Source: Candidatus Parcubacteria bacterium (GTDB lineage Bacteria > Patescibacteriota > Minisyncoccia > Phycocordibacterales > GCA-2747955). From it: DNA of 24,000 bases. Shown one piece after another: positions 36 through 22,167 of this stretch. Every line of letters begins with the position of its first letter. The first letter of the stretch is position 1. Location of the stretch: NCBI GenBank assembly GCA_027024305.1, contig JALVSO010000027.1, positions 1,959 to 25,958 of the forward strand. The letters are read 5' to 3'. The notes beneath the pieces are model-generated. The model was not told the origin of the DNA. It saw only the letters and a program-made list of their open reading frames with translations, and made no database searches. A program made the translations under genes and the position numbers.

Positions 36-62
36 CCTTTTTATAAAGAAAAAATAATAAAT

Positions 63-2033: not shown

Positions 2034-2089
2034 TAATATTACTACGCCGGGGGTGGTAGGATGATTTTTTCGTATGTTAGAATAGTTGA

Positions 2090-3199: not shown

Positions 3200-3202
3200 T
3201 CT

Positions 3203-3967: not shown

Positions 3968-4040
3968 ACTTTCATTATACTGCTTTTTAACAATATGACC
4001 AAATCATTTAATCTAAAAAAATTAGAAAACCAATCGTACT

Positions 4041-4070
4041 AAAACACCGAGGTCTTGCCTCGGTGTTTTT
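4041..4070. repeat. conserved hairpin AAAACACCGAGGtcttgCCTCGGTGTTTTT, copy 1 of 2
   Basis: Perfect 9-bp stem ACACCGAGG/CCTCGGTGT flanked by A- and T-runs. The same sequence recurs at 9698-9724. It sits between divergently transcribed genes. Confidence 0.7.
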
Positions 4071-4103
4071 GGTTTATATCTTTTTTACTGTTAAAATGGG
4101 AAA

Positions 4104-5858
4104 ATGAAACAGGAGACAGCTCTGAAAATTTTAAAGTCGGGACAGAATGTTTTTTTAACCGGATCCGCCGGAACCGGAAAGACCTATCTTTTAAATCAAT
4201 ATATAAATTATCTCAAAGAGAGAAGAATTCGTCCGGCCATCGTGGCCCCCACCGGCATCGCCGCTTCCCATTTGGACGGTCAAACCATCCACTCTTTTTT
4301 CGGTTTGGGATTGAGAAGCCAAGTGGATGACTGATTTCTGGATTCCCTTTTGCAGAAAAAATATCTCCACCAGAGGTTTAAAAATTTAAAGGTTTTAATT
4401 GTGGATGAGGTTTCCATGATTTCTCCGGAGCTGATGGAGAGTATGGATAAAATTTTAAGGGCTTTTAAATTTTCCAACAAGCCCTTTGGTGGAATTCAGG
4501 TTATTTTGTCCGGTGATTTTTTTCAGCTACCGCCGGTCAGTCGGGAAAGAAAAGCCAAGCGCTTTGCCTGGCAGGCTCCGGTTTGAAAGAGTTTAAATTT
4601 TGCCACCTGCTACCTTCAAGAAAAATTCCGCCAGGACGATGATAAATTGATCAATATCCTTGATGACATCCGCTCCGGGGAAATTTCCGAAGCCAGCTAT
4701 ACTTATCTGCAAGACCGTCACCAAGCCGAGTTGGAAAATTTTAGACCGACCAAGCTCTATACTCACAATGTGGATGTGGATCGGATAAATAAAGAAGAGT
4801 TGGACAAATTGCCGGGTGAGGAGAGGGTTTTTCTCTACACCTCTTCCGGCTCGGCTAAAAATGTGGAGAAAATTTTTAAATCATCACTTTTATTGGAAGA
4901 GGTGGTTCTGAAAAAAGATGCCGTGGTTCTCTTTATTAAAAATAATTTGGAGGAGGGTTATATCAACGGGACCACCGGCGTGGTGGTTGATTTTGACGAG
5001 GACGACGGTCTGCCCATCGTGGAGATATTTTCCGGCCGGAGAATTAAGGTTGCTCCCCTGGATTGAACCCTGGAAAATGAAAATGGAAAAATATTGGCCA
5101 CCGTTTCCCAAATTCCTCTGCGTTTAGCCTGAGCCATCACCATTCACAAATCCCAGGGAATGACTTTGGATGCCGCCGAGATTGATCTCAGCAAAACCTT
5201 TGAGGTGGGCCAGGGCTATGTGGCTCTTTCCCGAATCAGAAGTATTAAAGGTTTGCGCTTGCTTGGAATTAATGATACGGCCCTGCGGGTGGATCCTCTG
5301 ATTTTGCAGATTGAGGACCGAATGAAAGAGGCCTCCCAAAGATTTTCCGATGAGATGGAAAGTTACAGAGAGGAAGAATTAGAAAAAAAATTTAAAGATT
5401 TTATTTTAAAGGCCGGCGGGACCGTCAAGAAAGAAGAAATAGAAGAAGAGAGGGCTTTTTTGAAAGAAGAGAGGGAAAAGTTGGAACGAGCCCTGAAAAG
5501 CGGTGATGTGGAAATTGTTAAAAGAGAGAAAAAGCCGAATTACAAAATTACCGAGGAACTGATTGACCAAGTGGCTGATTTTCAAGAATTGGTTGAAAAA
5601 AGGGGTATGACCGCCGGCACTGTTATCGGACATTTGCAAAAAATCAAAGAAATGGATCCGGCCATAAATTTGGAGAAGTTTAAGCCGAACTGGGAGGTGG
5701 TGGATATGGTCCGGGAAGCCGTGGAGGACTTAAAAAAGGAAAATAAAAAAGAAAATTTTTTAGAGGACGGAACTTTAAAATTAAAACCGATTTTTAATGC
5801 TCTGGACGGGGAAGTAAGCTATGATGATATCAAGCTGGCTTTGCTTTTTATGGATTAA
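4104..5858 (+). CDS. PIF1/RecD-family SF1 helicase with C-terminal HTH-like tail (584 aa if TGA is sense)
   Basis: One frame joins tracked ORFs 4104-4334, 4350-4586, 4647-5066 and 5160-5858 across TGA at 4332, 4584, 5064 and 5130. Motifs: Walker A GSAGTGKT, Walker [18 protein letters not shown], and LRLA[TGA][13 protein letters not shown] (families have LAWAxxIHKSQG). TAA stop. Confidence 0.9.
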
Positions 5859-5882
5859 AATATCTTAGAAAATTAAAATATT

Positions 5883-5918
5883 ACACAAATGTCCGTACGG
5901 ACATTTGTGTGATTTTTT
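5883..5918 (+). terminator. intrinsic terminator after the helicase gene
   Basis: Perfect 28-nt palindrome ACACAAATGTCCGT/ACGGACATTTGTGT (5883-5910) followed by a T-run at 5913-5918. Confidence 0.75.
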
Positions 5919-6005
5919 AGAGGGGGGTTTAGAAAAGAGAAAAAGAAAAGAGAAAAGGAGAAGGTAAGGGGATGATAAGATGAGGGCGCGACAAGATGAA
6001 AGATT

Positions 6006-6034
6006 GGGGCGCGACCTTCGGTCGCGCCCCTTTT
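6006..6034 (+). terminator. GC-rich UUCG-loop hairpin plus T-run (terminator-like)
   Basis: GGGGCGCGACC-ttcg-GGTCGCGCCCC followed by TTTT. The core GCGACC-N3/4-GGTCGC recurs at 8857-8891 and 11202-11224. It sits just upstream of a TATAAT (6049-6054) preceding the next gene. Confidence 0.55.
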
Positions 6035-6063
6035 CAAAATATTTTTGCTATAATAAAGGCAAT

Positions 6064-8850
6064 ATGAGTGAATGACCACCGAGAAAAAATGAAAAAAAGG
6101 AAAGCCCACCCAATCCATACAAGTTTATTCCTGTTGTGCCGGGAAAGGGTTTCGTGGGCGATGATGTTTCAAATTCCAGGGAAACTGAGAGTATTCGCCA
6201 AATGGAGAAAGAGTATCTCGGACCGGAAGAGGATAGTTATGAATTCCGAATGGAAGAATATGCTGAGACGGGCGACCCCTCTGTTTTAAAAATAGAAGAT
6301 GTTAGAAGGACACCAGATGTTTTTGGATATGATGTGGTTTCTAATGTGCCCGGAGCGACAGAAAGTGATTTGGCGGAAGCTAGAGAGGTCGATGAAAAAT
6401 TTAGAAAAGAGATGGAAAGACAGGAACTTGACGATTATGCGGTCAGTGGAACAGAAGCTCTTTTTGCTAATCCTGATAATTTCGAAGAAAATTTATTTTC
6501 TTGAATAGATGGGACTCCCTACGAACAACTAAGAAAAGAACATGATATTTTTGAATTTAATATTTTATTTGATAAGTTGATGAAAAAAAGGGTTGGTGAA
6601 GATCCAAACGATAGGAGTATTTCAAGAGGCTATTCTCAAGAAAGGAAAAAATTTGCTTTAAACTTTATAAATTTTTGTAGGAAAAAATTTGAAGGTGATG
6701 AAAGCCCTGAAAAAGAAGAATATAATGATTTTATAAGTAAAGCATCTTTTGTTCTGACCGGAGTGGCACCGGGAGTTTTTGATTATATTGGTGGTGTTGA
6801 TGATAATTTGTTGGTCGTTTCAGAGATGCAATCGGTGCCCGGCATGAAAGTTTTTTATCAGGATAAAATGAATTCGTTAGTTTATGATTTAGAATTTTCC
6901 GATATTGATTTTTTAAGAAGGGCTTTTGAAAATAAAACAATTTTACAAAAAGCCAATATTATTAATTTGTTTCCTGAAATCATTGCTTTTGCTACTTCAA
7001 GTGGATATGCAGATAGTATTTATGAAAAGGTATTGAAAGTCTTGGATGAACAAATGGGACAAAATGTTCTGTTTGATAACCTGATATGGCAAAAAAGACT
7101 GGAAATTATTCAAATGGTTCGGGCGGAAATGCCAATAGATTCAAATGTAAGATCTTTTTCTTTCAGAAGAGATAAATTGTTAAGAGAGTTAGTAAATTTA
7201 CCGAATAAGTACAAAGACTATGAGGTTTTCTATATGGCTCGTAATCTGCTTGGCTTGAAAGATGTTTATGGAAAGGTAAGATATGCTGTTGAAGTTGATG
7301 GTGGAAAAGTGGAGAAAATGAGAATCCCCAGGGATAGGTTAGTTTATCAAAATATCTTAATGGCCCAAAAACAATCATATAATCAAAAAGAAATACTTAG
7401 GTATTTAGACGGAGAATATTATGGGGATTTAAGTCTCAGAGAAAAATGAAGGAGGGAGGTTGAAAGTGGTTATTTTATTTCCCCCGGGGGCTGGGAAGAA
7501 AACAACATTAAAGAAAGTTTAAATGTGTCGGAAGATGAAATTAAAAATATTTCAGAATATGTTAGCGGGGAAAATGCCAGAGACTTTCTTGACTTGTTTT
7601 ATGAACACACTCAACGAGATGCTTTGGAGCACGCTCTTTACGATGACCTTTCTCGTTTGTCTGTTCAGAGTCAAGAGCGTTTGTTGGATTATATGATTTC
7701 AGATCGAAGCCCCGATTCATTTTCCAGAATTAAGAAGTTTTCCAGGGGGTTGGATAATGAAAGGGAGAGAGATAATTTTTTGCAATCATTCCTTTCCCTG
7801 GCCCAGGGCGGTGAAGAAATGGGAGAAAAAATTTTAGCCATTGCCGAGGCTTATCCGAAAGAAGAAGCTTCCGCCATCTTCACCAAGTATGCGGAACTGG
7901 TTGATGCGACTGATAGGGTGGAGGAGTCTTTGAAAAAGGAGTTTCCCGGTGCTGATTTGGAAATGGTCAGAGAGATAGCTCAAAGACTTCTTTTAAAGGG
8001 AAAAAAGTTGCTGGATGAATTTTCGTCTCAAAAAGATATGAATGGGTCAGAACTGGTTAAACAGTTGGAAAAGTTGAGAGCTGAAAATATTTTATTGGTA
8101 GAAAAATATAAACTTCTGCGAGAGGCGGGAGTGGTTGAAAATATAGCCGATTTGGAATCGGTTAAAACGGAAAACCTGTCGGGGGCCGATGCTTTGAGAA
8201 ACGATAAACTAATGTCGTTCTTTAATGAGAGTTATAGGGATAATTACACTTCCTATTCGGAAGAGGGATTAAAATCTCTTTTGGAAAAGTTAAGAAAAAA
8301 TCTTTCAGCTGATAATTCAGAGGTTTATTATATGTCTTCCGGAGATAAAATTTTGTCGGCCATCCTATTGAATAAAAAAGAAGAAGAAAGAGAGGCTTAT
8401 TTAAGCGCTTTAAATGTAGATCCAACTTTAAAGGAAACTGCTGCCGGCAGGGTTTTGTTAGAGGAAGTGATGGGTCAATTGTTGGAAAGGGGATGAGCTT
8501 TAACGGCCGAAGCTTCTCCCGATAATGCTGTCCACTATATAAATTTATTTGATTTTGTGGGTTATGAAAGAGTGGAAGATTCTGATGAAGATTATATTTT
8601 AAAAATAAAAAGAGACGATACTACCTATGAGAGTAAAGATAAGAAAAAATATTCCAAAAAGAAAATCAGAGAGATGGTGGAGGGCAAGATTGCCGAAGAT
8701 GGAAAGATTGCCATTTGAATGACTCTTGATAGTAAAGAAACTCCGCCCCAGCTGGAAAAAGGTTATGTTATCACTCAGATGTTTAGAGGAAAGCTTGATG
8801 ATGTGCCAGGAAACTATTTTCTTTTGGAAAGGATTGATGAAAATAGGTAG
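6064..8850 (+). CDS. large hypothetical protein (928 aa if TGA is sense)
   Basis: ATG at 6064. One frame joins tracked ORFs 6136-6504, 6577-7449 and 7525-8496 and continues to TAG at 8848-8850, across TGA at 6073, 6502, 7447, 8494 and 8716. There are no in-frame TAA/TAG in the joining segments (checked by hand). I recognise no family. The C-terminal ~120 aa (SALNVDPTLKETAAGRVLLEEVMGQLLERG.ALTAEASPDNAVHYINLFDFVGYE) is faintly GNAT-like. Confidence 0.7.
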
Positions 8851-8856
8851 GTTTTA

Positions 8857-8891
8857 GAAAATGAGCGCGACCTGCGGTCGCGCTCATTTTC
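8857..8891. terminator. bidirectional intrinsic terminator between convergent genes
   Basis: GAAAATGAGCGCGACC-tgc-GGTCGCGCTCATTTTC. The A/T runs on both sides allow it to function on either strand. Confidence 0.8.
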
Positions 8892-9652
8892 TAACTTAAA
8901 CTTTCCCAAAGGGCTTCAAAAAGAAAACGATTTAATTTATAGATGTCTGGATCAGATATGATACTGGAAGTTAAACTTTTATTTTTAAAGGTTATATAGG
9001 CTACTTTTTGATTATAGATTTGATTAACCGCATAGAAATTTTTAATTTCGCCCCTTGGGGCTATTTTTATTTCCGTTAATTTGTTATTTTTGTTTTTTTC
9101 TAAGTATTTTCTGGCTTCCGGACTATCTATCATAATAATTTTCTTTTTGATTTTCTTTTTGATTCTTTCTTGAACATAGAGTTGGTCAATATCAGCTATT
9201 TCTTTTTCCAGGGTTTGGCTATCTACAATGGTGTAAATGATTTCGTCTTTAACCGATAGAGTTTCTTCTAAAACTTTCCTAACTCCTTCTTCGCCTTCAA
9301 AAAATTGCACTCCGGGTTTTCCGGCCGTCAGGTTGTATTGGGAAGTCAGGGCGTCAATGGTTGCTCCCAGCTCTTTTTGAGCTCTTTTAATTTCCGCTTC
9401 TTTCTTGAAAAGTAATTCTTCCAATTTGGAAGGGTGGGCCGGCAGAAACAGACCGGCGGAGCCGCTTTTTTTCTCTTTTTCTACCAATCCCAATTCCATT
9501 AATTCATCCAGAACCTTATAGGTTAGCTGTCTGGAAAGACCAACTTCCTTGGCAAGTTCTGAGCCTTTTTTCTTACCCCCCGATATCAAAAGGGAATATA
9601 TTTCAGCTTGGTTTTTACCCAGCCCAATTTCTTGTAATTTTTTATCAAACAT
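8891..9652 (-). CDS. TrmB-family HTH transcriptional regulator (253 aa)
   Basis: Intact ORF. The N-terminus LQEIGLGKNQAEIYSLLISGGKKKGSELAKEVGLSRQLTYKVLDELMELGLVEK fits the TrmB-type winged-helix pattern. TAG stop, no in-frame TGA. Confidence 0.7.
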   Translation of the reverse strand: MFDKKLQEIGLGKNQAEIYSLLISGGKKKGSELAKEVGLSRQLTYKVLDELMELGLVEKEKKSGSAGLFLPAHPSKLEELLFKKEAEIKRAQKELGATIDALTSQYNLTAGKPGVQFFEGEEGVRKVLEETLSVKDEIIYTIVDSQTLEKEIADIDQLYVQERIKKKIKKKIIMIDSPEARKYLEKNKNNKLTEIKIAPRGEIKNFYAVNQIYNQKVAYITFKNKSLTSSIISDPDIYKLNRFLFEALWESLS

Positions 9653-9697
9653 AATTCTATTTTAGCCGAAAAAGAAATAAAAAGCGAGAAGAGGAGA

Positions 9698-9724
9698 AAC
9701 ACCGAGGTCTTGCCTCGGTGTTTT
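9698..9724. repeat. conserved hairpin AAACACCGAGGtcttgCCTCGGTGTTTT, copy 2 of 2
   Basis: Identical to 4041-4070. It again lies between divergently oriented gene starts (9652 minus, 9749 plus). Confidence 0.7.
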
Positions 9725-9748
9725 ATGATTTTGTGTTACAATTCCCCT

Positions 9749-10129
9749 ATGAAAGATTTTGATTCTTGAAATGATATAAAGAAGAAAACCGAAGATGAGA
9801 AATTTCGATTTTATAAGGTTAGGGAGGTCTGGTGATGTCGTTTCGGTCTTAATATTGGTACGGAGATGAATGGTAAAGGTGAATGATTTGTACGTCCCGT
9901 TGTTGTCTTAAAAAGTTTTGGGAAGAATGCTTGTTTGGTGGTTCCTTTAACGACATCAGAAAAAGAGCACGATATGAGAATAGATATTGGTCTCATTGAT
10001 GGGAAAAAAGCAAAAGCCAATATATCCCAGATAAGGGTAGTGGATACGAAGAGATTTGAAGAAAAAATATCTTTTTTATCAAAAACCGAGTTTTCCAAAT
10101 TAAAAAAAATCGTTAAAGAATTATTTTAA
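9749..10129 (+). CDS. MazF/PemK-family toxin-like protein (126 aa if TGA is sense)
   Basis: ATG at 9749 is in frame with tracked ORF 9935-10129, across TGA at 9767, 9833 and 9884. Sequence ...FYKVREVW[TGA]CRFGLNIGTEMNGKGE[TGA]FVRPVVVLKSF...LVVPLTTS...ANISQIRVVDTKRF matches the PemK-like pattern (EIWW..G.N.G.E..GK...RPVLVL...PLTS...QIR.ID..R). TAA stop. Confidence 0.8.
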
Positions 10130-10141
10130 CGATTTTTTTTT
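10102..10141 (+). terminator. intrinsic terminator overlapping the 3' end of the toxin gene
   Basis: ATCGTTAAA-gaattat-TTTAACGAT stem flanked by A8 and T9 runs. Confidence 0.65.
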
Positions 10142-10498
10142 GAAACTTTCTCCCCCTGTAAAATAGGGGGCGAGACCTAAGCCAACTATATTGGTAGTAT
10201 ATTATAAAGAAAAAAGAAAGTCAAATTTTTTAAAGCTTTATTGTTTATATTAAAATTTAATCTGTTAATAAGTTATAAGTCGCAAGTGATAATCACCTCT
10301 ATAGTAATTAGATAGATAGTGGTTGCCTTGGTAAAAAGTGAGGTAATGAATTAGAGAAACAGTTTAAATCACCATTATTTTAGCTGAGAATACTGTTTTT
10401 TTTCTTAAAATAATGCAATAATTAAGTATTTTTATGACAAAAAAATAGCTGAAATGTGTTGAAAAATAAGGGTTTTCTAAAAATAGACACAAAAAAGC

Positions 10499-10527
10499 TT
10501 GACAAATAAATCAAAATAGTATATAAT
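10499..10527 (+). promoter_or_regulatory. consensus sigma70 promoter (TTGACA, 17 nt, TATAAT)
   Basis: TTGACA at 10499-10504 and TATAAT at 10522-10527, exactly 17 nt apart, inside a 900-bp AT-rich ORF-free region. Confidence 0.6.
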
Positions 10528-10533
10528 GCGGTC

Positions 10534-10700
10534 AGATTTTGAAAGATTGGGAAAAATTATGAAGGAGAGAGCATAATTTTTCTGAGAAAAGGAAAGGCTT
10601 TGAGAGACAAATCCAAAAATGGATTTATCTCACAAGGTCTTTGTTGACCGACCTCGGTCAGTGAAGAAAGCACTCTCTCCACGGGAGTGCTTTCTTTTTC
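10534..10700 (+). ncRNA. candidate ~165-nt small RNA (consensus promoter to intrinsic terminator)
   Basis: Bounded by the promoter above and the terminator GAAAGCACTC-9 nt-GAGTGCTTTC plus T5 (10666-10699). It contains a perfect 11-bp hairpin GAAAAATTATG-aaggagagag-CATAATTTTTC with an SD-like loop. No credible ORF. Family not recognised. Confidence 0.4.
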
Positions 10701-10736
10701 CCAGAAAAATTATACTTCGGAAATTTCTCAATCTTT

Positions 10737-10846
10737 CATCGGTCTTTAAATAACATATTAATTTATGTTCCATGTAGTCAGGTGGGTAGGTTAATACGGG
10801 TCTTGGAACAGGACTGCGGAACGCTCCACCCTTCGGTTCAACCGAT
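10737..10846 (+). ncRNA. possible ~110-nt structured element closed by CATCGGT/ACCGATG
   Basis: Long-range complementarity 10737-10743/10840-10846. Internal pairings include G-U wobbles (GTAGTC/GACTGC, GGTGG/CCACC). The only ORF here is an implausible minus-strand one (10630-10851). Confidence 0.25.
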
Positions 10847-10864
10847 GACAAGGGCTACAAACCG

Positions 10865-10933
10865 TTTTGTAAAGAAACGGCTGGAATTAAAAAGTCTAAC
10901 CAACTTTTTAATTCCGGAAATTTCTTTACAAAA
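10865..10933. repeat. long two-tier inverted repeat (69 nt hairpin)
   Basis: TTTTGTAAAGAAA..CTGGAATTAAAAAGT-ctaacca-ACTTTTTAATTCCGG..TTTCTTTACAAAA. That is 13 + 15 bp of pairing with one G-U. Confidence 0.6.
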
Positions 10934-10982
10934 TTTGTAAAGAAAAATTCGTTTCTTTGACAAAGGTTTTAAAAAATACTTC

Positions 10983-11012
10983 TTAACTGAAATATTTTTT
11001 AAACAATATAAT
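10983..11012 (+). promoter_or_regulatory. putative promoter at the AT-rich/GC-rich transition (TTAACT, 18 nt, TATAAT)
   Basis: TATAAT at 11007-11012 and TTAACT at 10983-10988. It would start transcription ~11020, reading into the structured region and the hammerhead. Confidence 0.4.
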
Positions 11013-11019
11013 GTCAAAA

Positions 11020-11563
11020 TTTGTTAAAGATCCCCGGAAAAGAAGCCGGACTTGTCAGGTATGGTTCGGCGTGTGGTTGCTGACAAGTCCGGCTTCGTGA
11101 AAACTCCGGTCAGATCTTTGGCGGATTTTTGGAAAAAATATGGATTGCTTCCCTCCACATCCGTTCCTCTCGCAATGACGACCACCGGAGGTGGTCGTTG
11201 GGACGGCGACCTGCGGTCGCCGTCATTACGAGGAGCTCGCGACGAAGTAATCCATGCAGACATTCGTCACCGTTATGTATTTTTCAAGATACCCGGTTTG
11301 TCGGCAATCACACGCCTAACCATACCCAACAAACCGGGTATCAATTTTTTCCAAAAATCCGCCCCAGGGTGGAAACAAAATGGAGGCGATGACACTGCCA
11401 TTTTTGAAGCTAAACAAAAGGTTTTAGATTCAAAAATGGCAGTGGGGCTCGTAGAGAGCGGGGCTACCCCGGCGAGGTAAACAAACTCGTCCTTGGTGAA
11501 ATTCCAAACATTGCCTTCAAATACAGAGAAGTTCAGCGTGGTTCGTTGAGCTTCTCTGCCGTC
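11020..11563 (+). ncRNA. candidate ~540-nt highly structured RNA ending at the hammerhead cleavage site
   Basis: No plausible ORF (the tracked ORFs here are Arg/Pro-rich shadows). Perfect 17-bp hairpin at 11042-11058/11080-11096. 19-bp long-range helix GGCGGATTTTTGGAAAAAA (11120-11138) / TTTTTTCCAAAAATCCGCC (11345-11363) enclosing hairpins at 11178-11198 and 11202-11224. 14-bp hairpin GATACCCGGTTTGT/ACAAACCGGGTATC. 16-bp hairpin CACTGCCATTTTTGAA/TTCAAAAATGGCAGTG. Confidence 0.45.
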
Positions 11564-11609
11564 CCGGAGTGTGCGCTCCGGCTGATGAGTCCAAAAGGAC
11601 GAAACGGTA
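11557..11609 (+). ncRNA. type III hammerhead self-cleaving ribozyme
   Basis: UGCCGUC|CCGGAG-ugugcg-CUCCGG-CUGAUGA-GUCC-aaaa-GGAC-GAAA-CGGUA. The full catalytic core is present (CUGAUGA, GAAA, GUC cleavage triplet). Stem I is 6 bp with a closed loop and stem II is 4 bp with G10.1-C11.1. Stem III is open and 6 bp (ACGGUA/UGCCGU, one G-U). Predicted cleavage is between 11563 and 11564. Confidence 0.85.
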
Positions 11610-11810
11610 AAATTGTCACGGTATGACTGCGGGATAACGAGGAAGCGACGCGGAATGACGCTGAAAAGTCCACCCTGACAAAAATAACGAAGTCCGACTT
11701 CGTTGCCTGTTCCGAAGCGAGATTTTAGCGATAAATTCTTGTCGCTAAAATCTCGCTCTTCGGAGCGAAAAGGTTCCGGCGTGTATTCGCCGGGTAAATT
11801 TAACTGAAAA

Positions 11811-11881
11811 TCACCGAGGCAAATATCCCCTATAAGCTGAAGATTATCCTTCAGTGAAATGGGGAGAATAAGCCGAGGTGA
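11811..11881 (+). promoter_or_regulatory. three-tier stem-loop in the 5' UTR immediately upstream of the RBS of the next gene
   Basis: TCACC..GGC / GCC..GGTGA, TCCCC/GGGGA and CTGAAG-attatc-CTTCAG are nested. It ends 6-14 nt before the AGGAGAG RBS and ATG 11895, and it covers the alternative ATG at 11859. Confidence 0.4.
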
Positions 11882-11894
11882 TCAGGAGAGAAAG

Positions 11895-12272
11895 ATGGCC
11901 AAGGTCATCCGTATCTCCCGCCACCCGCTGGGTGGTGATCGGGAGGCGGCTCTCAAGGCCGCCTTCGGCGATGACGTGGAAATCGTCACCGTCGATGTTC
12001 CCTATGGGGACGACCCCGTTGCCACCGTCGGTCAGCTGATTGACCGGGAAGGGGATGTCGTGGCCGTTGAGGCCCAGGCGCCCTTTCCGGTGACCATGAA
12101 GCTGGTCGACGCGAACCGGAAGCTGGGTGTTAAGTTCGTCCGCGCCGAATTCAAGCGCGGTGCGGATGGACGGGCTGTTGTCGTTGGTCAAGACGACAAT
12201 GGTCGCGACATCCTGGCTTTCGATCGCTACGTGGAGTTGCGTCGTATCGTTATTGATACGGCGGAGCTCTAA
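11895..12272 (+). CDS. hypothetical protein (125 aa)
   Basis: ATG 11895 is preceded by CAGGAGAG. The tracked ORF starts at 11859, but that ATG lies inside the stem-loop without an RBS. Protein-like composition (MAKVIRISRHPLGGDREAALKAAFGDDVEIVTVDVPYGDDP...). TAA stop. Family not recognised. Confidence 0.65.
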   Translation: MAKVIRISRHPLGGDREAALKAAFGDDVEIVTVDVPYGDDPVATVGQLIDREGDVVAVEAQAPFPVTMKLVDANRKLGVKFVRAEFKRGADGRAVVVGQDDNGRDILAFDRYVELRRIVIDTAEL

Positions 12273-13430
12273 CGGGCGACCGGCCGGGTGGCGGCGGTAC
12301 CGGCAACGTCAAGCCGGGCGTGCAGCTATGCGCGGTGGTAACGGTGAGCAACGGCTCATCATTCCGAAAGCCGATAATGGCAAATAGTGGGGATTCCGCT
12401 CCCCTTGTAGCGGGATTGACTGGAGGAGGATAATCCGATGGACAATTAGTAGCGCCGAGTCCTGGCGCCATAACAGAAATGAGGACAGCCAAAAGTGAGT
12501 GGTTTCACTTTTGGTGACCCCGGGAGGAGGGCGGCTCCTCTCAGTCGTGCACTATGCACGCAACCGTCCGAGGCGGTTCCTCGGCATGGCCTTAGGGAGG
12601 ACCTATGGCTATTTAAAAAGGCGCCTGGAGACAGGGGCGCCCGATAAATACCACTCCCTCGGGGGCAGGACGAGTTCCGGGAGAAGGGGTGAGAAGTTGC
12701 TAGCCCCGGGATATGAGACCTGCCATCATATTCCGAAATCGAAGCAACTATTGGTTGACTCCCGAGCGTGGTTTGTTCGGGGGCTTTATTGAGTCGGTAA
12801 TTTTAGATTATCGGCTCATAGAGCAAGAGGGGGGGTTGCCTTTCTCCTCCCATTCAGTTTCAAGAAGTACGGATAACTTCTTGAACCTCCGGGTCGTGCT
12901 CGGAGTTTGAATAAAAATCGGTCGGCAAAGGATTGCCGACCGGTTAGAATGACTCGGAGAAGCTTAGTTGGTCGGGCTTCTCTTAAAAAAAGTTACCATG
13001 GGGCTTAATGGCTCCATGGTAACCGGACCAACCCTCCACATTGGAGGAAAATAGGGTGTTGTTTCCTTCACCCTCCCAATTCTGAGAGTCAAGGACTACT
13101 CTCAGGATCTTCGCAAGGCGGAGTTTGGGAAAGTTTTCCATAAAAGGAATTTATGGAAGACAAAGGAAACTCGGGCCCTTATAACCGGAGGGCCTTAAAG
13201 GTAGCCCCCGCCTTGGTTAGGCGGGGGTTAGGTTGCTCCCCCGAGATGGATTTCGGGGGCTTTATTGGGCAGATCTGTTTTACAGGTCTGTCCATAGAGA
13301 ATTGAACAAACTCTTTCACCTGACTTTCTCTTCTGCAAAGAAAGTCATTGAAGGGTGGAAGGGGTTAAATTTTAATAGGGCTCAGGCCCCTCCGCCGCGC
13401 TTTTTTCATGGGCGCGGAGCAGACGGAGCA
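12273..13430 (+). ncRNA. ~1.15-kb ORF-free, hairpin-dense region (candidate large structured RNA or array of small RNAs)
   Basis: At least 9 perfect 7-10-bp hairpins: 12489-12514, 12860-12884, 12919-12942, 12992-13023, 13082-13105, 13205-13227, 13238-13259, ~13321-13347. Two are terminator-like units ending ...TTCGGGGGCTTTATTG (12758-12795, 13238-13269). The tracked ORFs here have non-protein-like composition. Strand is assumed from the neighbouring genes. Confidence 0.4.
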
Positions 13431-13447
13431 CCTTAAGGAGGTGAAAC

Positions 13448-13687
13448 ATGAATGAAGACAAAAAAAAAGAGGTGGAGTGGGTCTTGGCCAACTTCACCAA
13501 GGAGGAGGTCCTCGGGGAAATCGAGGATCTGGAAAGGCGAATCCCACTTGAGTGGGAGGACGCTAATGATGCATATTCCGAGCCCTGTGCGGGCGCGGAA
13601 TCGAACTATTATTCAATAGTTCGAGGAATCGACGAAATGGAGGAGCGCCTGGAAGCGTTCCGGGAAGCATATAGGCTCCTCCAGTAG
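13448..13687 (+). CDS. small acidic hypothetical protein (79 aa)
   Basis: Strong RBS AAGGAGGTGA 7 nt upstream of the ATG. TAG stop, followed by an intrinsic terminator. Confidence 0.65.
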   Translation: MNEDKKKEVEWVLANFTKEEVLGEIEDLERRIPLEWEDANDAYSEPCAGAESNYYSIVRGIDEMEERLEAFREAYRLLQ

Positions 13688-13708
13688 ATTTAGATTCCTG
13701 TGCACATT

Positions 13709-13757
13709 TCCCGAGCGGTGGTGTTGTAGTGACATTACCCGCTCGGGACTTTTTTTG
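13709..13757 (+). terminator. intrinsic terminator, CCGAGCGG-hairpin family copy 1
   Basis: TCCCGAGCGG...CCGCTCGGGA 10-bp stem with an inner GTA/TAC helix, followed by CTTTTTTT. It is near-identical to 18115-18160. Confidence 0.8.
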
Positions 13758-13782
13758 AAAATTCAAAAATTTGAATTTTCAA
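13755..13782. promoter_or_regulatory. perfect 13-bp inverted repeat TTGAAAATTCAAA-aa-TTTGAATTTTCAA (operator-like)
   Basis: Exact palindrome read directly. It lies between the terminator and the module-end repeat. Confidence 0.4.
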
Positions 13783-13802
13783 AGAAGGGATTTCCGGGGA
13801 AC

Positions 13803-13875
13803 AAATCTTTTGCAACGTTTTTGAACGTCCCAGGGACGTACCGGAATTTGGATTTGAATCTGCCTAGAGTTTTTT
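13803..13875 (+). repeat. module-end repeat, copy A1 (short version)
   Basis: AAATCTT...TGAACGTCCCAGGGACGTACCGGAATTTGGATTTGAATCTGCCTAGAGTTTTTT. It shares the ACGTCCCAGGGACGT palindrome and the GATTTGAATCTGCYTAGAG+T-run tail with 22168-22320 and 23826-23978. GC content drops immediately after it. Confidence 0.75.
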
Positions 13876-13896
13876 AGAAATTTAAAAAAGAAAATT

Positions 13897-14088
13897 ATGA
13901 AAGAAATTATATTTATAACATCCATCATTTCAGGTCTCCTGATATTTTTTATCTTTATTTTCTCTTTGGATTTGGATGCCGGAATTATGGCTATTTTGGC
14001 AGCCTTTTTTGGTTCGGCCTATAACCGGTTATATCTTTTTCTAAATCATTTATTTAGAGAAAAACATCCGGAGAAAAGTGAGTTTTAA
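13897..14088 (+). CDS. possible small two-TM membrane protein (63 aa) in an AT-rich patch
   Basis: Intact ORF with hydrophobic segments (IIFITSIISGLLIFFIFIF, IMAILAAFFG). Weak RBS. Its AT-rich composition is unlike the flanking GC-rich blocks. Confidence 0.4.
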   Translation: MKEIIFITSIISGLLIFFIFIFSLDLDAGIMAILAAFFGSAYNRLYLFLNHLFREKHPEKSEF

Positions 14089-14126
14089 AATGTCTTTTGA
14101 AATGAAAACAGCTAGTCTTGCATTTT

Positions 14127-14174
14127 CCGAGCGGTATTTTGTTGACAAAACTTTGCCGACAAAATACCGCTCGG
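14127..14174. repeat. 16-bp perfect hairpin of the CCGAGCGG family (no T-run)
   Basis: CCGAGCGGTATTTTGT-16 nt-ACAAAATACCGCTCGG. Its outer arms are the same as the two terminators at 13709 and 18115. Confidence 0.6.
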
Positions 14175-14345
14175 GAGAGTGGTGAATTGGCTTTTGCAGA
14201 GCCCATCTTTAGTCTGAAAGCATAGCTGCAAAGAATATGCTTTCTGGGTGATCCGCGACCAACAAGACTGCGGGGAGTGCTAGGTTCTGAACTTCCAACA
14301 ATAGGAAGGAATGAAGCGCTCAAGCTCAAAATTCGGAGGTGAATA

Positions 14346-15458
14346 ATGAGCAAAAAAAACATTGCGGAGCTGGCTCCGCAAAAAAATGTGGCGGAAAAGA
14401 TTTCTCAGGCTCTGTCTGAGAATTTTATCCGCTCCGAGAGAGTTGCCCGTATTCTCGCCCTTGCGGTGGAATCGGGCAAAAATGTATTACTTTGGGGGCC
14501 GGGCGGACACGGCAAGTCCGAGATGGTGGAGCTTGCGCTCGCGCAAGTCGCCGACTCGGACGACGTGTTCGTCCAATCCTTTGGCGAGGGCATGGATGAG
14601 GCAACCCTTTGGGGTGGCCTTGATTTCCAGGCCCTCGAGTCGGAAAAGGTGCTTCGGTATTTTCCGGAGCAAAGCTTCCTTGCGAAGCCTTTTGCCGTCT
14701 TTGAGGAGATCTTTGACGCCCCGGCGTCGGTTCTCCTCGCCCTGAAGGATACCCTGACGGCGCGCAAGCTCCGCAAGGGTGGTCAACAATTTCCTATGGA
14801 AACCAAAGTGATCATCGCGATCACCAACAAGGATCCGGAGGAAATTTCTGACCTCGGCCCCGCCGCAGCTGCTCTGGTGGAGCGGTTCCCGCTCCAGCTC
14901 AATGTAGATTGGGACTCCTATGAGGCCCGGGACTACACCGAGCTGTTTGATAAGGTCGGATCTCGGCTCCCGGGGGCGGATCTCAACGGCACCCAGCGGG
15001 TGCTGGCGGAGATTATCGCCAAGGCTTCGGCCGATGGCGATATTATTTCACCCCGCACCGCGGTTCACGCCCTCGGCGTGGTCAAGACCGCGGCGGCCCT
15101 GCGAGGCTCAGACCGGGTGGAGAAGGAGGACCTGGTGGACCTCCAGTACCTGCCCGGCATGGAGGACCTGGCGGATAATATCCGTCAGGAGTTGGACGCC
15201 GCCTACGAGCGGGCCGAGGCAGAGCGCCGGCTGGTTGCGGCCGAGGATCGGTTGCGTGAACTGTTGGCGGAGCTCCACGACGCAACGACGCCAATCAAGG
15301 CACTCCAAGTTGCTCGCCGCCTGCAGTCTCTGCAGGACGACACCAGCAACCTGAAAGTGCCGGACGGTCTCACCGACCGGCGCAAAAACCTGCGCAACTC
15401 TATCAGCGAGAAGGTGCAAGCGGCGCAGGAGCTTGCCCTTCAAAACACCCGCATCTAG
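14346..15458 (+). CDS. MoxR/CobS-like AAA+ ATPase (370 aa)
   Basis: RBS GGAGGTGA. Walker A LLWGPGGHGKSE, Walker B-like AVFEEIFDA, and sensor-like IIAITNKD and ISPRTAV. C-terminal coiled-coil-like tail. TAG stop. Confidence 0.8.
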   Translation: MSKKNIAELAPQKNVAEKISQALSENFIRSERVARILALAVESGKNVLLWGPGGHGKSEMVELALAQVADSDDVFVQSFGEGMDEATLWGGLDFQALESEKVLRYFPEQSFLAKPFAVFEEIFDAPASVLLALKDTLTARKLRKGGQQFPMETKVIIAITNKDPEEISDLGPAAAALVERFPLQLNVDWDSYEARDYTELFDKVGSRLPGADLNGTQRVLAEIIAKASADGDIISPRTAVHALGVVKTAAALRGSDRVEKEDLVDLQYLPGMEDLADNIRQELDAAYERAEAERRLVAAEDRLRELLAELHDATTPIKALQVARRLQSLQDDTSNLKVPDGLTDRRKNLRNSISEKVQAAQELALQNTRI

Positions 15459-15473
15459 CGGGAGGAGGAAAAA

Positions 15474-16850
15474 ATGAACTTTACGTTCAGAACAACTCCT
15501 CCCGCTACCTATATCCCTCCGAACTCGGAGGAGATGCGGGAGGTCGCGGCTAAGGTCGGGCTGAAGGGATTCAGCCGCGACCTGGTCGCGGACCTGTGTA
15601 ACCTGGCGGCGGGGGGAGCAATCCAACCCCCGTCGGCGTATCGGGAAATCGTACACCGGCAGGTGGAGGAAAAGCTCCCTGCCCCCGATAGCGATGGCGA
15701 GTGGTCGGTTGGAGGTGGCTACACCAAAGACCGTCTGCAAGCTATCAATCACCGCCTGGAAAAAGCGATGAGATACCATCAGAATGTCTGCGATTTCTTG
15801 CAGACGGTGGACCTCAGCGCCTTTCCCGGCCGAAGCCCCCTTGAGCAGGCCATGAGCTTGCTCAAGCTGCTTTCCAAGCAGGAGGGTGGCTCCGGCGGCG
15901 GTGAGGGGGGCGAGCCCCTGCCCATCTTCCAGGACAATGATCGTCCGGAAGGTGTCGCCGAAAAACTCCATGAGACCATGGAGTTGGCGGAGTCGCTGGA
16001 CGAGACCGAGCAGGAGATGCTCGATCCGGATGGTGACTGGCAGGAGGATGCCGAGCAGGATGGACAGGAAACCGGCTCCTCGGGGCTTCAAGCCCTGAAG
16101 GTTGCCGAGGACCTGGTCGACGGGAGTGACAAGCGCGCCATGCTTGAGATTTCCCGTCAGCTTGACCAGTTTACCAAGCTGCAAGTGCGGCGACAAAAAC
16201 TGGTCAAGCCAGATCCTACCGGCGACGAAATCCGAACCCGGGGCATCAAGCATCTTGGAGAACTCGGCAGAGTCTCCAAAAGTGCTTGGGCCACCCGCCA
16301 ACAACAGCCGACGTACTTTTTGTACCAGGCTGTGACCGGTCAGCTCCCCGTTCGGGAGCGGGTGACCCGCCAGGAGAAGAAACAGGCGATCTTCATCCTG
16401 GTTGACGGCTCCGGGTCTATGGAGGGCCGCAAACACCACAAGGCCACGGGGGTGGTGATGAACCGCCTCAAGGCAGTGGTGGACGGCGACGCGGAGGTTT
16501 GGGTTTCGGTCTTTGACACCGAAATGTCCAATCCAATGCATGCCGGAAATGCGGAGGAGGCCCGGGAACTGATCAAACAGTTCCGTCATGGCAACTTCCG
16601 CGGCGGCGGCACCGACATCGCCAGCGCGGTGAAAGCCGCGCACGCCTTCATTGAGGAAAAGATGAAGGCGGGCGAGGCGCTTTGGAGACCGGAAGTGGTA
16701 GTCCTCACTGATGAGGACAGCTCCACGCAAGGTCTCCGCAAGTCTGAGGTCAAGGGCACTCGTGTCCACGGATTTGCAATCGAGCGCAAAAACAAGCCGC
16801 TGGTGACTTTTGCCAAGTCAACCGGCGGCGTGGGGATTGAAAACTTTTAG
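15474..16850 (+). CDS. von Willebrand factor A (vWA/MIDAS) domain protein (458 aa)
   Basis: RBS GGAGGAGG. It starts 15 nt after the AAA+ gene. C-terminal vWA domain with the MIDAS motif ILVDGSGSM plus GGGTDI and VVVLTDED. Acidic linker. TAG stop. Confidence 0.8.
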   Translation: MNFTFRTTPPATYIPPNSEEMREVAAKVGLKGFSRDLVADLCNLAAGGAIQPPSAYREIVHRQVEEKLPAPDSDGEWSVGGGYTKDRLQAINHRLEKAMRYHQNVCDFLQTVDLSAFPGRSPLEQAMSLLKLLSKQEGGSGGGEGGEPLPIFQDNDRPEGVAEKLHETMELAESLDETEQEMLDPDGDWQEDAEQDGQETGSSGLQALKVAEDLVDGSDKRAMLEISRQLDQFTKLQVRRQKLVKPDPTGDEIRTRGIKHLGELGRVSKSAWATRQQQPTYFLYQAVTGQLPVRERVTRQEKKQAIFILVDGSGSMEGRKHHKATGVVMNRLKAVVDGDAEVWVSVFDTEMSNPMHAGNAEEARELIKQFRHGNFRGGGTDIASAVKAAHAFIEEKMKAGEALWRPEVVVLTDEDSSTQGLRKSEVKGTRVHGFAIERKNKPLVTFAKSTGGVGIENF

Positions 16851-16874
16851 TTGAATATCCTCTGGTTATTTTCT

Positions 16875-16920
16875 GTGAAACTTGGCTTGGTGTGGTGCCA
16901 AGTCAAGTTTCACTTCTTTA
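16875..16920 (+). terminator. probable terminator after the vWA gene
   Basis: GTGAAACTTGGCTTGG-tgtggtg-CCAAGTCAAGTTTCAC (16 bp, one G-U) followed by the U-rich TTCTTTAT. Confidence 0.55.
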
Positions 16921-16970
16921 TCAAGCATCCAAAATGGTTTGGGTGCTTGTAGAGAAAAGGAGGTGAAAAA

Positions 16971-17012
16971 ATGAAAAATCGGGATCCTCCGATGATGCCC
17001 GAACTCGGCTAG
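16971..17012 (+). CDS. possible 13-codon micro-ORF (MKNRDPPMMPELG) with a very strong RBS
   Basis: AAGGAGGTGA lies 6 nt upstream of the ATG and the ORF ends in TAG. It sits at the start of a 0.7-kb non-coding region. It could be a leader peptide or coincidental. Confidence 0.25.
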   Translation: MKNRDPPMMPELG

Positions 17013-17564
17013 GGCTAAAACACTCTGAGGCCGACGGTTGGGCCGAGACACCGTTGGGGCGATGTTCCTGCCGATGGAGCCCGTTTCAGTATATTTCAAG
17101 ACCGGAGAGCTGCTGACTCTTTGATGGCTTGGGATATGGTAAAGCTGAATGGCCGGGTGATGCCGGTAAAACAAACATCAACACGAAGCAATGGTTAGAG
17201 AACATCCAGCCAAGTGTATTGCCCGTGCAAAAAACGGGTGTATAAAAATCTCAACTCCGGTTTTCCCGGGGCGGCATGGTGTCGTAGATACGCAATGCGG
17301 CACTTAACCTCTTACTAACGGAGGATGGTTATGCGTATAAGGGACCCCCCTTAGGTTTTGGTCATTTTCATTCTAATAATTATTGGAGTGGAAATGACCT
17401 TGGATAGAGGAAGTGCTTGGTAGTGCTTCCTCTCTACTTTTGGGAATATAACTTTTAGGAGTTGTATTTCCAAGGAGTGGATTTTTCTCTTTTAGTGAAG
17501 CGGGATAGAGAGCCTGAAGTTTTTTGGGTTTTGTCTTCCGTTTCACTAATTTAGGGAGGGTAGT

Positions 17565-18107
17565 ATGGAATTTTTTTCTAAGGATGGAGGTGTTGTTGTT
17601 GTGCCGTGGGGCACACAGCAACACCTCCGCGCTCACCCGGACGTCTTGGATGTCCTGGGTGAGGCAATTTCAAAAATTGAACTCCCCACGGATGGGGAGT
17701 TTCTGAAAACGACCGTTGATCTGGGAAGGGTTATCGGTCGTTCCGGGGCGGTGGAGACCGACCCGATTCAATACGACGAGCAGACCTGGTTTGCCCATCG
17801 TATTGGGCGGGACGGACCTTCACGTGTTGTTTTGGACACGGAAGGTCCGGAGGTTTCCACCGTTGCGATCCTGGCGTTCCAAGCCAGGGATCGCAGCACC
17901 GGGAAAATCCAGCCGGGCAAGTACATCCTTGCTACGGCATGGATCGGCTCGGCGGAGGCCGAGCGAGAGCCCTGGGACAAGGGCATAAAAACAGAGCGGG
18001 AGCGCCAAGCCGCACTGCGGTATTGGTGCTCCCATGCTCTGGTCTATGACAAGGAGGTCATGGACAAGCCCTTCCAATCTTCATGGAAGGAGATTTTGGA
18101 AGGGTGA
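17565..18107 (+). CDS. hypothetical protein (180 aa)
   Basis: RBS GGGAGGG. Globular-looking composition. Apparent TGA stop followed by an intrinsic terminator. Family not recognised; the N-terminal HLRAHPD is only a weak hint of a nuclease-type His motif. Confidence 0.65.
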   Translation: MEFFSKDGGVVVVPWGTQQHLRAHPDVLDVLGEAISKIELPTDGEFLKTTVDLGRVIGRSGAVETDPIQYDEQTWFAHRIGRDGPSRVVLDTEGPEVSTVAILAFQARDRSTGKIQPGKYILATAWIGSAEAEREPWDKGIKTERERQAALRYWCSHALVYDKEVMDKPFQSSWKEILEG

Positions 18108-18114
18108 ATCTTTT

Positions 18115-18160
18115 TCCCGAGCGGTGGTGTTGTGGTGACATCACACGCTCGGGACTTTTA
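18115..18160 (+). terminator. intrinsic terminator, CCGAGCGG-hairpin family copy 2
   Basis: TCCCGAGCGG...CGCTCGGGA followed by CTTTTATT. The inner helix GTG/CAC covaries with GTA/TAC in copy 1. Confidence 0.75.
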
Positions 18161-18206
18161 TTGTGCCGGTAACTTTCCAAGTTACGGGCACATAGAAGTT
18201 TTTCAT

Positions 18207-18324
18207 TTTTTTTCACGGACTCCCTTGTCCGTTCAATTGTGCCGGTGATGAACCGGAAGTCCTACGGGGCGCGAACAGACAAGGGGCTTGCCGAAAGGTG
18301 AGTGTTCTGTTCGTGGAGAGAGAA
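18207..18324 (+). promoter_or_regulatory. structured 5' leader, copy 1 of 2
   Basis: ~95% identical to 19042-19159. It contains ACGGAC-tccctt-GTCCGT, CCGG-tgatgaa-CCGG, and GAACAGA...[CUUGCC-GAAA-GGUGAG]...UCUGUUC, then the GGAGAGAG RBS. Confidence 0.6.
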
Positions 18325-19041: not shown

Positions 19042-19159
19042 TTTTTTTCACGGACTCCCTTGTCCGTTCAGCTTTGCTGGTGATGAGCCGGAAGTCCTGC
19101 GGGGCGCGAACAGACAAGGGGCTTGCCGAAAGGTGAGTGTTCTGTTCGTGGAGAGAGAA
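19042..19159 (+). promoter_or_regulatory. structured 5' leader, copy 2 of 2
   Basis: It starts immediately after the preceding stop codon. About 6 substitutions relative to copy 1, including CCGG>CTGG, which keeps pairing as G-U. Confidence 0.6.
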
Positions 19160-22162: not shown

Positions 22163-22167
22163 GGGGT

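Follow-up and report, generated by a model that had tools for sequence, protein, structure and literature searches.

A hairpin-packed non-coding segment, a probable operon leader, that ends at a hammerhead ribozyme in a tightly folded chromosomal island of a Parcubacteria bacterium

We analyzed a 24,000-nucleotide stretch of DNA from a Candidatus Parcubacteria bacterium (contig JALVSO010000027.1, positions 1,959 to 25,958; hereafter the window), with attention to a densely structured segment at positions 11020-11563 of its forward strand. The segment is non-coding and ends at the cleavage site of a canonical type III hammerhead ribozyme. It is the extreme case within a 13.6-kb chromosomal island that, genes included, folds about as tightly as the genome of an RNA virus. 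Our preferred reading, which we hold to have somewhat better than an even chance of being right, is that 11020-11563 forms the final, non-coding stretch of a long 5' leader belonging to the operon headed by a small gene, ORF125, that it is released by the ribozyme, that it is specific to this lineage, and that it has been shaped by island-wide selection for compact RNA. The segment had first been picked out from the sequence alone (below, the original prediction) as a structured RNA of about 540 nt that is processed by the hammerhead and that could not be assigned to a known family.

The segment is far more stably folded than its composition predicts. The minimum free energy (MFE) of 11013-11610 is -277.9 kcal/mol, compared with -184 +/- 7 kcal/mol in 100 dinucleotide shuffles (z -12.7), and 0 of the 100 shuffles folded as stably. 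The centroid structure of this region is nearly the same as its MFE structure, and 11020-11563 folded alone gives z -16.8. The claim of an unusually structured non-coding stretch was thus borne out, and so, with small corrections, were its helices. The repeat finder that supplied the inverted-repeat and helix coordinates in the window (Table 1) recovered the 17-bp perfect hairpin at 11042-11096 (H1) as described. The long-range helix is present but has 20 bp, not the 19 bp reported. The hairpins placed at 11297-11343 and 11392-11443 have the 14 and 16 perfect base pairs attributed to them, at the true coordinates 11288-11342 (H4) and 11393-11444. Inside the domain closed by the long-range helix, the predicted fold has a helix of 12 bp, a three-way junction bearing two hairpins of 10 bp each, and H4.

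The segment is non-coding. Its sole long open reading frame (ORF), at 11052-11480 (142 amino acids), starts with TTG and lacks a ribosome-binding site, and it traverses the stems of every long helix. A search of 1.84 billion representative proteins returned only the sequence itself, and there was no match in PHROG (Pfam was not run on this ORF). The earlier statement that the segment has no credible ORF is therefore true in substance: the reading frame exists but is an orphan. A gene caller did call this ORF on an identical Logan contig, and one could suppose on that basis that the region encodes the 142-amino-acid protein. Given the orphan status of the ORF among known proteins and the lack of a PHROG match, we rejected this explanation, which we regard as extremely improbable.

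The 3' boundary of the leader coincides with the cleavage site of a canonical hammerhead on the same strand. The ribozyme, GCCGUC/CCGG...CUGAUGAGUCCAAAAGGACGAAACGGU (slash, cleavage site), has the consensus nucleotide at all core positions (CUGAUGA...GAAA, including the A-U closing pair) and a GUC cleavage triplet, which fits the NUH rule. In the Rfam and custom alignments, stem I (7-8 bp) and stem II (4 bp) are closed by loops and stem III (5 bp) is open. Against Rfam Hammerhead_3 (RF00008), the ribozyme scores 45.7 bits (E 2e-8), 2.8 bits below the gathering score of 48.5 bits; the shortfall comes from the loops, of which I is slightly longer and II shorter, and not from the core. Among about 40 related loci, which we fetched around homologues of ORF125 and labelled L001 upward, two have hammerheads above the gathering score (54.0 bits in L030 and 52.3 bits in L011). 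A custom model gives the window ribozyme 70.9 bits, a score that is partly self-scoring because the hammerhead of the window itself, along with those of the related loci, went into the model. We infer that cleavage occurs after C11563 in vivo.

Hammerheads of this kind recur in a constant setting. The custom model finds 14 hammerheads in 8 related loci, every one on the gene strand. They occur as pairs 305-335 nt apart in L010, L033, L011 and L030, as a pair 1249 nt apart in L016, and singly in L032, L034 and the window. The window contains one hammerhead: a search with filters off for a second, degenerate copy upstream, which would define an excised or circular unit as in L010, L033, L011 and L030, found none. 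An exact search for the core and stem II of the window ribozyme identified 34 viral contigs with a total of 60 hammerhead matches; multiple matches on the same strand of a contig are common, and a contig has up to five hammerheads. We examined 69 hammerheads (the set comprises the window, L010-L034 and L042-L075; viral contigs account for 56), and in every case stem III is preceded, at a distance of 0-3 nt, by the end of a hairpin of 5-16 bp. An apparent start codon lies within a few tens of nucleotides after most of the 69; a ribosome-site search matched 17, and the other start codons were recognized by eye from the flanks. A Shine-Dalgarno sequence is absent after most of the viral hammerheads, for which the ATG was judged by eye. 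Thus, the end of an upstream RNA, a protective hairpin, a hammerhead and the next gene form a recurrent module. In the window, the hairpin at 11524-11558 that abuts the ribozyme fits an upstream product that is meant to keep a stable 3' end. The hairpins before stem III are often GC-rich or of the form GAGAGG...CCUCUC, and a GTTCTTT motif is often found 3' of the hammerheads in loci from the candidate phyla radiation (CPR).

In one respect the original prediction was too cautious, for the ribozyme part of the arrangement does match a known one. It resembles the type III hammerheads that punctuate prophage transcripts, whose clusters have been proposed (Perreault et al. 2011, PMC3088659) to process long transcripts into mRNAs of gene length. 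The shared features are a canonical ribozyme on the coding strand, an intergenic position upstream of a gene and the proposed transcript-cutting role. Relatives of the window carry two hammerheads per locus, and the same core and stem II are found in the 34 viral contigs. The differences are that a non-coding leader of 0.5-1 kb, and not a gene, is cut off here, and that the host belongs to the CPR. The constant hairpin abutting stem III is not known to have been described for such prophage hammerheads.

The leader itself matches no family. Scanning the whole window against Rfam 15 gave no match at gathering scores. With E up to 10, the region 10400-12000 yielded the hammerhead and chance-level matches to microRNA and small-RNA models, and nothing else. 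The Rfam scan that the original prediction had proposed thus recovered the ribozyme and left the rest of the leader without a family. BLASTN of 10100-12300 against 50,697 phage records gave no match. Searches of 41 related loci by nhmmer with the leader, the upstream region and other intergenic regions of the island found only a base-identical Logan contig (L001); the identical sequence is also present in sample SRR13622960. In the closest relative, L040, the ORF125 protein is 85% identical, and the DNA (~79% identical over a 550-nt stretch that starts 100 nt before ORF125 and runs slightly beyond its stop codon) can be aligned no further upstream than window position 11793. Beyond that limit, L040 has a different gene and unrelated but equally perfect hairpins. 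The original prediction would have expected conservation and covariation among homologues of a genuine RNA family; neither was found, as the search returned the identical contig alone. On this comparison, the leader is best seen as lineage-specific, with fast sequence turnover, and not as a conserved RNA family or the framework of a conserved RNA machine. A literature search on hammerheads or structured RNA in Patescibacteria found nothing.

An analogue exists in two of the related loci. A non-coding region of ~1.1 kb ends at the first hammerhead of L010 (1600-2769) and L033 (1454-2563). The two copies are 77% identical and share no ORF. Of 293 predicted pairs, 41 are changed on both sides; only two sequences are available for this comparison, and the zero count of broken pairs arises partly by construction. 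No further homologues were found. We consider this region a candidate new large structured RNA. Taken together, the L010/L033 analogue and the window leader suggest that large structured RNAs ending at a hammerhead typify this family of islands, each lineage having its own.

The spacers between paired hammerheads are structured as well. Same-strand pairs flank a structured spacer in L010 (2764-3119), L033 (2558-2918), L011 (5620-6042) and L030 (5551-5968). Such a spacer would be excised with 5'-hydroxyl and cyclic-phosphate ends and might be circularized. In L010 and L033, the spacer forms a long near-perfect hairpin whose 3' end, ATGCATCCGT, is kept, while the remaining sequence is unrelated between the two loci. 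An alternative pairing of stem I of the first hammerhead with the middle of the spacer covaries between these loci (G-C to A-U).

The ornate folding is not special to the 540 nt. We folded the window in 400-nt windows and compared each with dinucleotide shuffles, using the same script for the calibration genomes. Windows of the + strand within 10401-24000, coding or not, have z of -2.5 to -14.7 (mean about -8), compared with about 0 (range +2.3 to -4.3) in 1-10000, where a single window at a 19-bp terminator reaches -6.3. The GC content shifts near 11000 from 31-41% to 50-62%. The hyper-structured zone takes in the genes for a MoxR ATPase, a VWA protein, a DEAH helicase and others; the MoxR coding sequence, for example, has z -11.8 in the shuffle test supplied with the folding tool. 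When codons were shuffled synonymously, so that protein and codon usage were kept, island genes gave z of -3.7 to -18.7, compared with -0.3 to -2.6 for four host genes. The structure of the island thus extends to synonymous sites. Among the calibration genomes, the mean z is -8.6 for the single-stranded RNA (ssRNA) phage MS2, -1.2 to -2.5 for four hammerhead-bearing double-stranded DNA viral contigs, and -0.8 and -1.0 for the single-stranded DNA (ssDNA) phages M13 and phiX174. We found no earlier account of such an island in the literature that can be searched, and it lies outside the coordinates of the original prediction.

The way in which the structure is distributed points to RNA made from the + strand, rather than DNA, as the molecule under selection. 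The structured zone begins at the promoter start site, or at most ~300 nt downstream of it, in the window and in L003, L004, L014, L015 and L038; L036 is an exception, with windows upstream of the promoter that are already negative. Elsewhere in the island, G-U pairs are predicted more often on the + strand than on the - strand (54 vs 16 and 49 vs 14). The coding sequence of ORF125 has a consensus RNA structure over 32 homologues (alifold z -4.5 against column shuffles that preserve codon position), and several of its pairs switch among C-G, G-C and U-A at third codon positions. A similar hyper-structured zone, in many cases GC-rich, surrounds ORF125 in the related loci, and z is flat on either side of it. 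Together, these four lines of evidence argue for the + strand RNA.

Two simpler causes of the low energies were considered and rejected. High GC content does not account for them, because the GC-rich flanks in L007 have z of about 0 and synonymous shuffles keep composition. An ssDNA genome does not account for them either, because M13 and phiX174 have z of about -1. The intergenic region of filamentous ssDNA phages does share with the window a non-coding block of ~500 nt with long hairpins and genes all in one direction. It differs in that those phage genomes are close to their shuffles and in that the structured zone of the island starts at a promoter, and no Rep or Zot-like families were found among the proteins scanned. 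MS2-type phages match the island in the degree of folding in identical 400-nt windows, coding regions included, whereas the island is chromosome-integrated DNA that has terminators and promoters of the sigma-70 type. Scans of island proteins with Pfam and PHROG detected neither an RNA replicase nor a coat or maturation protein.

The leader RNA probably starts farther upstream than originally predicted. The promoter of the original prediction, at 10983-11012, is present, but sites like it are not enriched in the region (9 found, compared with 6.1 +/- 2.2 expected from shuffles), and it is weaker than P1, a conserved and perfect sigma-70 promoter 480 nt upstream. A TTGACA-N16-19-TAnnnT promoter is found upstream of ORF125 in six related loci, and MAFFT places it alike in 6 of 6, with a structured leader after it. 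P1 is therefore the likely main start of the leader transcript, and 10983-11012 may be a secondary start. The figure of ~540 nt is probably not the full length of the RNA; the piece released by the ribozyme may be ~0.55 kb if transcription starts at 10983-11012 or ~1.03 kb if it starts at P1. The RNA between the promoters is structured too, with z -11.4 for 10530-11015. It includes a first leader domain and a 31-bp imperfect hairpin, and the inner 15-bp stem of the latter, followed by AAATTTCTTT, was flagged as terminator-like. This hairpin is possibly an attenuator or terminator.

Based on these results, we propose the following sequence of events. Transcription would start at 10499-10527 and perhaps also, more weakly, at 10983-11012, and the nascent leader RNA would fold as a chain of very stable helices. 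The hammerhead at 11558-11608 would then cleave after C11563. Cleavage would free a leader of ~0.55-1.0 kb that ends in the 15-bp hairpin and a short tail with GUC and a 2',3'-cyclic phosphate, and the ORF125 mRNA would begin with a 5'-hydroxyl and retain both the folded ribozyme and a conserved motif in its 5' untranslated region (UTR). The leader helices would be the outcome, in non-coding sequence free of other constraints, of the island-wide selection for compact, fully paired transcripts. Such compaction may shield transcripts from RNases or from transcript-sensing type III CRISPR, given the ring-nuclease-type genes found in these islands. The arrangement recalls RiboJ-type insulators, in which a self-cleaving ribozyme between a promoter or leader and a gene strips off the upstream RNA and leaves a fixed 5'-hydroxyl end with a hairpin. 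It differs from them in being natural, in that its start codon is separated from the ribozyme by ~290 nt of additional structured UTR, and in the very large size of the part removed.

Table 1. Features of the window and the evidence for each
Feature	Coordinates	Strand	Evidence
TrmB-family helix-turn-helix regulator, divergent from leader	8891-9652	-	Pfam TrmB, E 2e-12
Hyper-structured island, all genes on + strand	10401-24000	+	folding of 400-nt windows against shuffles
Sigma-70 promoter P1, TTGACA-17-TATAAT, 12/12 consensus	10499-10527	+	promoter scan
First leader domain, multi-branch fold	10535-10745	+	inverted repeats 10540-54/10724-38 and 10570-96/10690-716 enclosing two hairpins
Imperfect 31-bp hairpin between both promoters	10865-10933	+	arms 87% complementary
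Originally predicted promoter, TTAACT-18-TATAAT, 10/12 consensus	10983-11012	+	promoter scan
Leader segment, non-coding, hairpin-packed; 3' end is the ribozyme cleavage site	11020-11563	+	folding z, helices, orphan ORF
Hairpin H1, 17-bp perfect stem, 21-nt loop	11042-11096 (arms 11042-11058/11080-11096)	+	repeat finder
Domain closed by 20-bp perfect long-range helix	11120-11363 (arms 11120-11139/11344-11363; 204 nt between)	+	repeats, folding
Hairpin H4, inverted relative of H1; 14 perfect bp, 17 with one mismatch	11288-11342	+	repeat finder
Hairpin, 16-bp perfect stem; 22 bp with one mismatch	11393-11444	+	repeat finder, fold
Hairpin of 15 bp abutting hammerhead stem III; would be the 3'-terminal hairpin of the leader	11524-11558	+	fold
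Type III hammerhead ribozyme, predicted cleavage after C11563	11558-11608 (model match 11556-11610)	+	Rfam and custom model
Structured 5' UTR after ribozyme, including 19-bp hairpin 11716-11757	11609-11801	+	z -9.3
Conserved 5'-UTR motif, three nested helices	11802-11894	+	four copies, compensatory changes
ORF125, first gene after ribozyme, marker of the island family	11895-12272	+	35 homologues
DHH-family phosphoesterase, type III CRISPR-associated kind	22532-23371	+	PADLOC C3a116, E 2.3e-54; DHH_CorA, E 1.5e-32

Several observations weigh against this proposal. The helices of the leader are almost purely Watson-Crick and symmetric between strands, in contrast to the G-U-rich, strand-biased remainder of the island: G-U pairs account for 10 of the 188 pairs predicted for the + strand and 14 of the 189 for the - strand, and the latter folds nearly as well (-233.6 vs -251.6 kcal/mol). 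Because the leader has few G-U pairs and both strands fold, its pairs cannot tell which strand is the functional one, or RNA from DNA; such helices would also fit palindromes that act at the DNA level or hairpins too young to have decayed, two alternatives that the original prediction had raised and that still stand. With no homologue of the 540 nt among the related loci, no covariation test is possible on the leader. The loops of H1 and H4 have been kept better than the stems (2 of 21 positions changed, compared with 6 of 17), which hints at a sequence-specific role beyond that of a generic leader. Finally, the transcription start, the cleavage and fate of the leader, and the purpose of compaction are what we infer from sequence and predicted structure.

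The H1 and H4 loops could be explained if the segment were instead a discrete, lineage-specific RNA that acts in trans. In this explanation the ribozyme would release the RNA, the 21-nt loops of H1 and H4 would kiss within or between molecules, and the RNA would serve as a decoy, a scaffold or a multimer, like large phage-associated RNAs. The two loops are complementary at 19 of 21 positions, while the stems, as read from the sequences, differ at 6 of 17 positions with both arms altered each time. By our own arithmetic, the binomial probability of two or fewer changes in 21 positions is ~0.009 if the loops had diverged at the rate of the stems. This pattern suggests that the loops are constrained, by a kissing interaction or by a shared binding partner. 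The RNA would also have defined ends (a promoter upstream, the hammerhead and the terminal hairpin downstream), its fold is well defined, and its L010/L033 analogue covaries. However, it has no homologue, the nearest relative has another sequence in its place, no Rfam model other than the hammerhead matches it even at relaxed E-values, and the energy density is similar across the whole island, genes included. Nor does the leader have an antisense target of at least 14 nt within the window, and no more copies of the H1/H4 loop were found there. Overall, we consider a discrete RNA unlikely. The known large RNAs OLE, GOLLD, ROOL, HEARO and raiA are similar to the leader in having several hundred nucleotides, many helices, a context like that of a mobile element and potentially kissing loops. 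Each of those families is recognized by being conserved, with covarying pairs, in many genomes, whereas the leader has no homologue and gave no covariance-model match to these or other known large RNAs in Rfam 15.

The palindromes might instead act on DNA between the TrmB gene and the operon, as operators, recombination sites or cruciforms, or as the ends of an invertible 204-bp segment. The Watson-Crick perfection and strand symmetry of the leader helices are what one would expect of such elements, a gene for a helix-turn-helix regulator adjoins them, and other perfect palindromes lie between terminators and promoter-like boxes in intergenic regions of the island. But arms of 17-22 bp with centres of 8 to 21 nt are unlike operator half-sites, and the structured zone has its onset where transcription is predicted to begin, not at a DNA junction. 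The + strand folds better than the - strand. No recombinase or invertase family was found among the proteins scanned, which covered part of the ORFs of the window. Moreover, H1 and H4 stayed self-complementary while they diverged, as a constraint on a hairpin, and not on a protein-binding site, would require. We regard a DNA-level role as improbable.

The helices might also be young and nearly neutral, having arisen by palindromic duplications or insertions (through template switching or a small transposable element) in a leader that tolerates them, and having had no time to decay. The stems are perfect, the sequence has turned over fully between close relatives, with unrelated perfect hairpins upstream in L040, and H1 and H4 are an inverted duplicate pair. 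H1 and H4, however, are not young: each of their six diverged stem positions is compensated. Divergence with compensation implies that the hairpin constraint has been sustained over time, which speaks against young, neutral helices and against a plain protein-binding site alike. In addition, there is no target-site duplication around the 20-bp repeat, no other copies are found in the window or the related loci, and hairpin-rich leaders occur in all related islands, which argues for selection. This explanation strikes us as decidedly improbable, and we continue to favor a ribozyme-released operon leader shaped by selection on the island as a whole.

The gene downstream of the ribozyme, ORF125, is the marker of the island family. 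It encodes a protein of 125 amino acids in which R, H, D and YGDD residues are invariant; nearly all of its 35 homologues come from metagenome bins of the CPR (Patescibacteria). An AlphaFold2 model predicts a small alpha/beta fold (mean predicted local distance difference test score 93.6). Foldseek found no match in the PDB at E <1e-3, with weak matches to CARF and SAVED proteins, and otherwise it found only weak matches to uncharacterized viral proteins (best E 2.8e-4). Profile searches against PDB sequences, Pfam, PHROG and PADLOC gave no match to the protein, and 2 of 27 family members had a weak CARF match. Between the structured 5' UTR and ORF125 lies the conserved 5'-UTR motif, whose internal loops contain invariant CUAUAAG, GAAAUG and GAAUAAG. 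Its four copies (window 11802-11894, L040 380-476 and 1096-1191, and L041 30-124) share 23 pairs, 17 of them with changes on both sides. A covariance model finds these four copies alone, and the motif matches no Rfam family. It lies just before the ribosome-binding site of ORF125 and, in L040, also before a DUF1874-like gene, and it may be a riboswitch-like or protein-binding element.

Other genes in these islands suggest a connection to type III CRISPR. In addition to the DHH-family phosphoesterase of the window, Csx3-AAA proteins are encoded beside ORF125 in L008 (5555-6499) and L016 (1763-2911), and L040 encodes a DUF1874/STIV-B116-like protein (477-791). Csx3 and DUF1874 (AcrIII-1) are ring nucleases, which destroy the cyclic-oligoadenylate signal of type III CRISPR, and CorA-associated DHH enzymes degrade the related SAM-AMP signal. 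We regard ORF125, which co-occurs with these genes, as a possible new component of type III CRISPR signalling or anti-signalling. Because this type of CRISPR detects transcripts, a compact, self-processed RNA could stay inaccessible to it. There are parallels with anti-CRISPR operons, in which a strong promoter is adjacent to a gene for a helix-turn-helix repressor: the window has a perfect promoter beside a divergent helix-turn-helix gene, and the islands carry DUF1874/STIV-B116-like, Csx3-AAA and DHH genes, whose products are of kinds known or predicted to break down type III CRISPR signal molecules. The regulator here, in contrast, is of the TrmB type. We know of no description of long structured leaders or ribozymes as a feature of anti-CRISPR operons. 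Links of the island to phages are weak (phrog_23674, E 3e-21, and one ATPase PHROG).

The TrmB neighborhood is the same in L003, L004, L014, L015 and L019, and conservation of the leaders does not extend beyond subgroups (L014 with L015; L003, L004, L036 and L038 together). A 15-nt hairpin core, GCGACCTGCGGTCGC, is identical at 8867-8881 and 11206-11220 (E 0.02 in a search of the window only); the first copy is within a perfect 19-bp stem-loop at the 3' end of the TrmB gene, and the second is in a leader hairpin. The sequence past the TrmB gene (9790-10140) looks by eye like a degenerate PemK/MazF-type toxin gene (...VVPLTTSEKEH...IRVVDTKRF...), and a perfect 16-bp terminator at 10102-10140 ends this region. 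The perfect consensus promoter P1 is followed by a multi-branch RNA of ~210 nt (10499-10745 for both) that matches no Rfam family. Further into the island, the intergenic regions 13705-13790, 16866-16950, 18110-18200 and 22190-22320 each contain, in this order, a terminator-like hairpin with a T run, a perfect palindrome and a TAGAG-type box, and GAACGTCCCAGGGACGTACCG...GATTTGAATCTGC.TAGAGTTTTTT recurs at ~13820 and ~22255. Among the related loci, a 55-nt hairpin occurs twice in L007, at 3194-3248 and 4475-4529, 1281 nt apart and upstream of ORF125; the two copies are identical and share their right flank (also L023, 66-120 and 1347-1401). In L034, a tRNA gene (1870-1953, - strand) lies directly downstream of the ORF125 homologue and may be the site of island integration.

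By itself, the segment of 540 nt, read as a leader specific to this lineage on a known kind of ribozyme module, is of modest interest. The larger result is a chromosomal island with RNA-virus-like folding and selection at synonymous sites that recurs around one small gene family in many CPR genomes. It is conceivable, but in our judgement rather unlikely, that these islands represent an undescribed strategy in which a DNA element has its whole transcriptome folded like that of an ssRNA phage and processed by hammerheads, thereby evading type III CRISPR or RNases, and in which the leader is a dedicated RNA decoy or a self-assembling RNA. The islands also carry hammerheads and ring-nuclease-type genes; if this link is real, bacterial hammerheads would gain a concrete role, a question that has been open since 2011. 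It would also make RNA compaction a strategy of counter-defence or of RNA stability, one that is directly testable.

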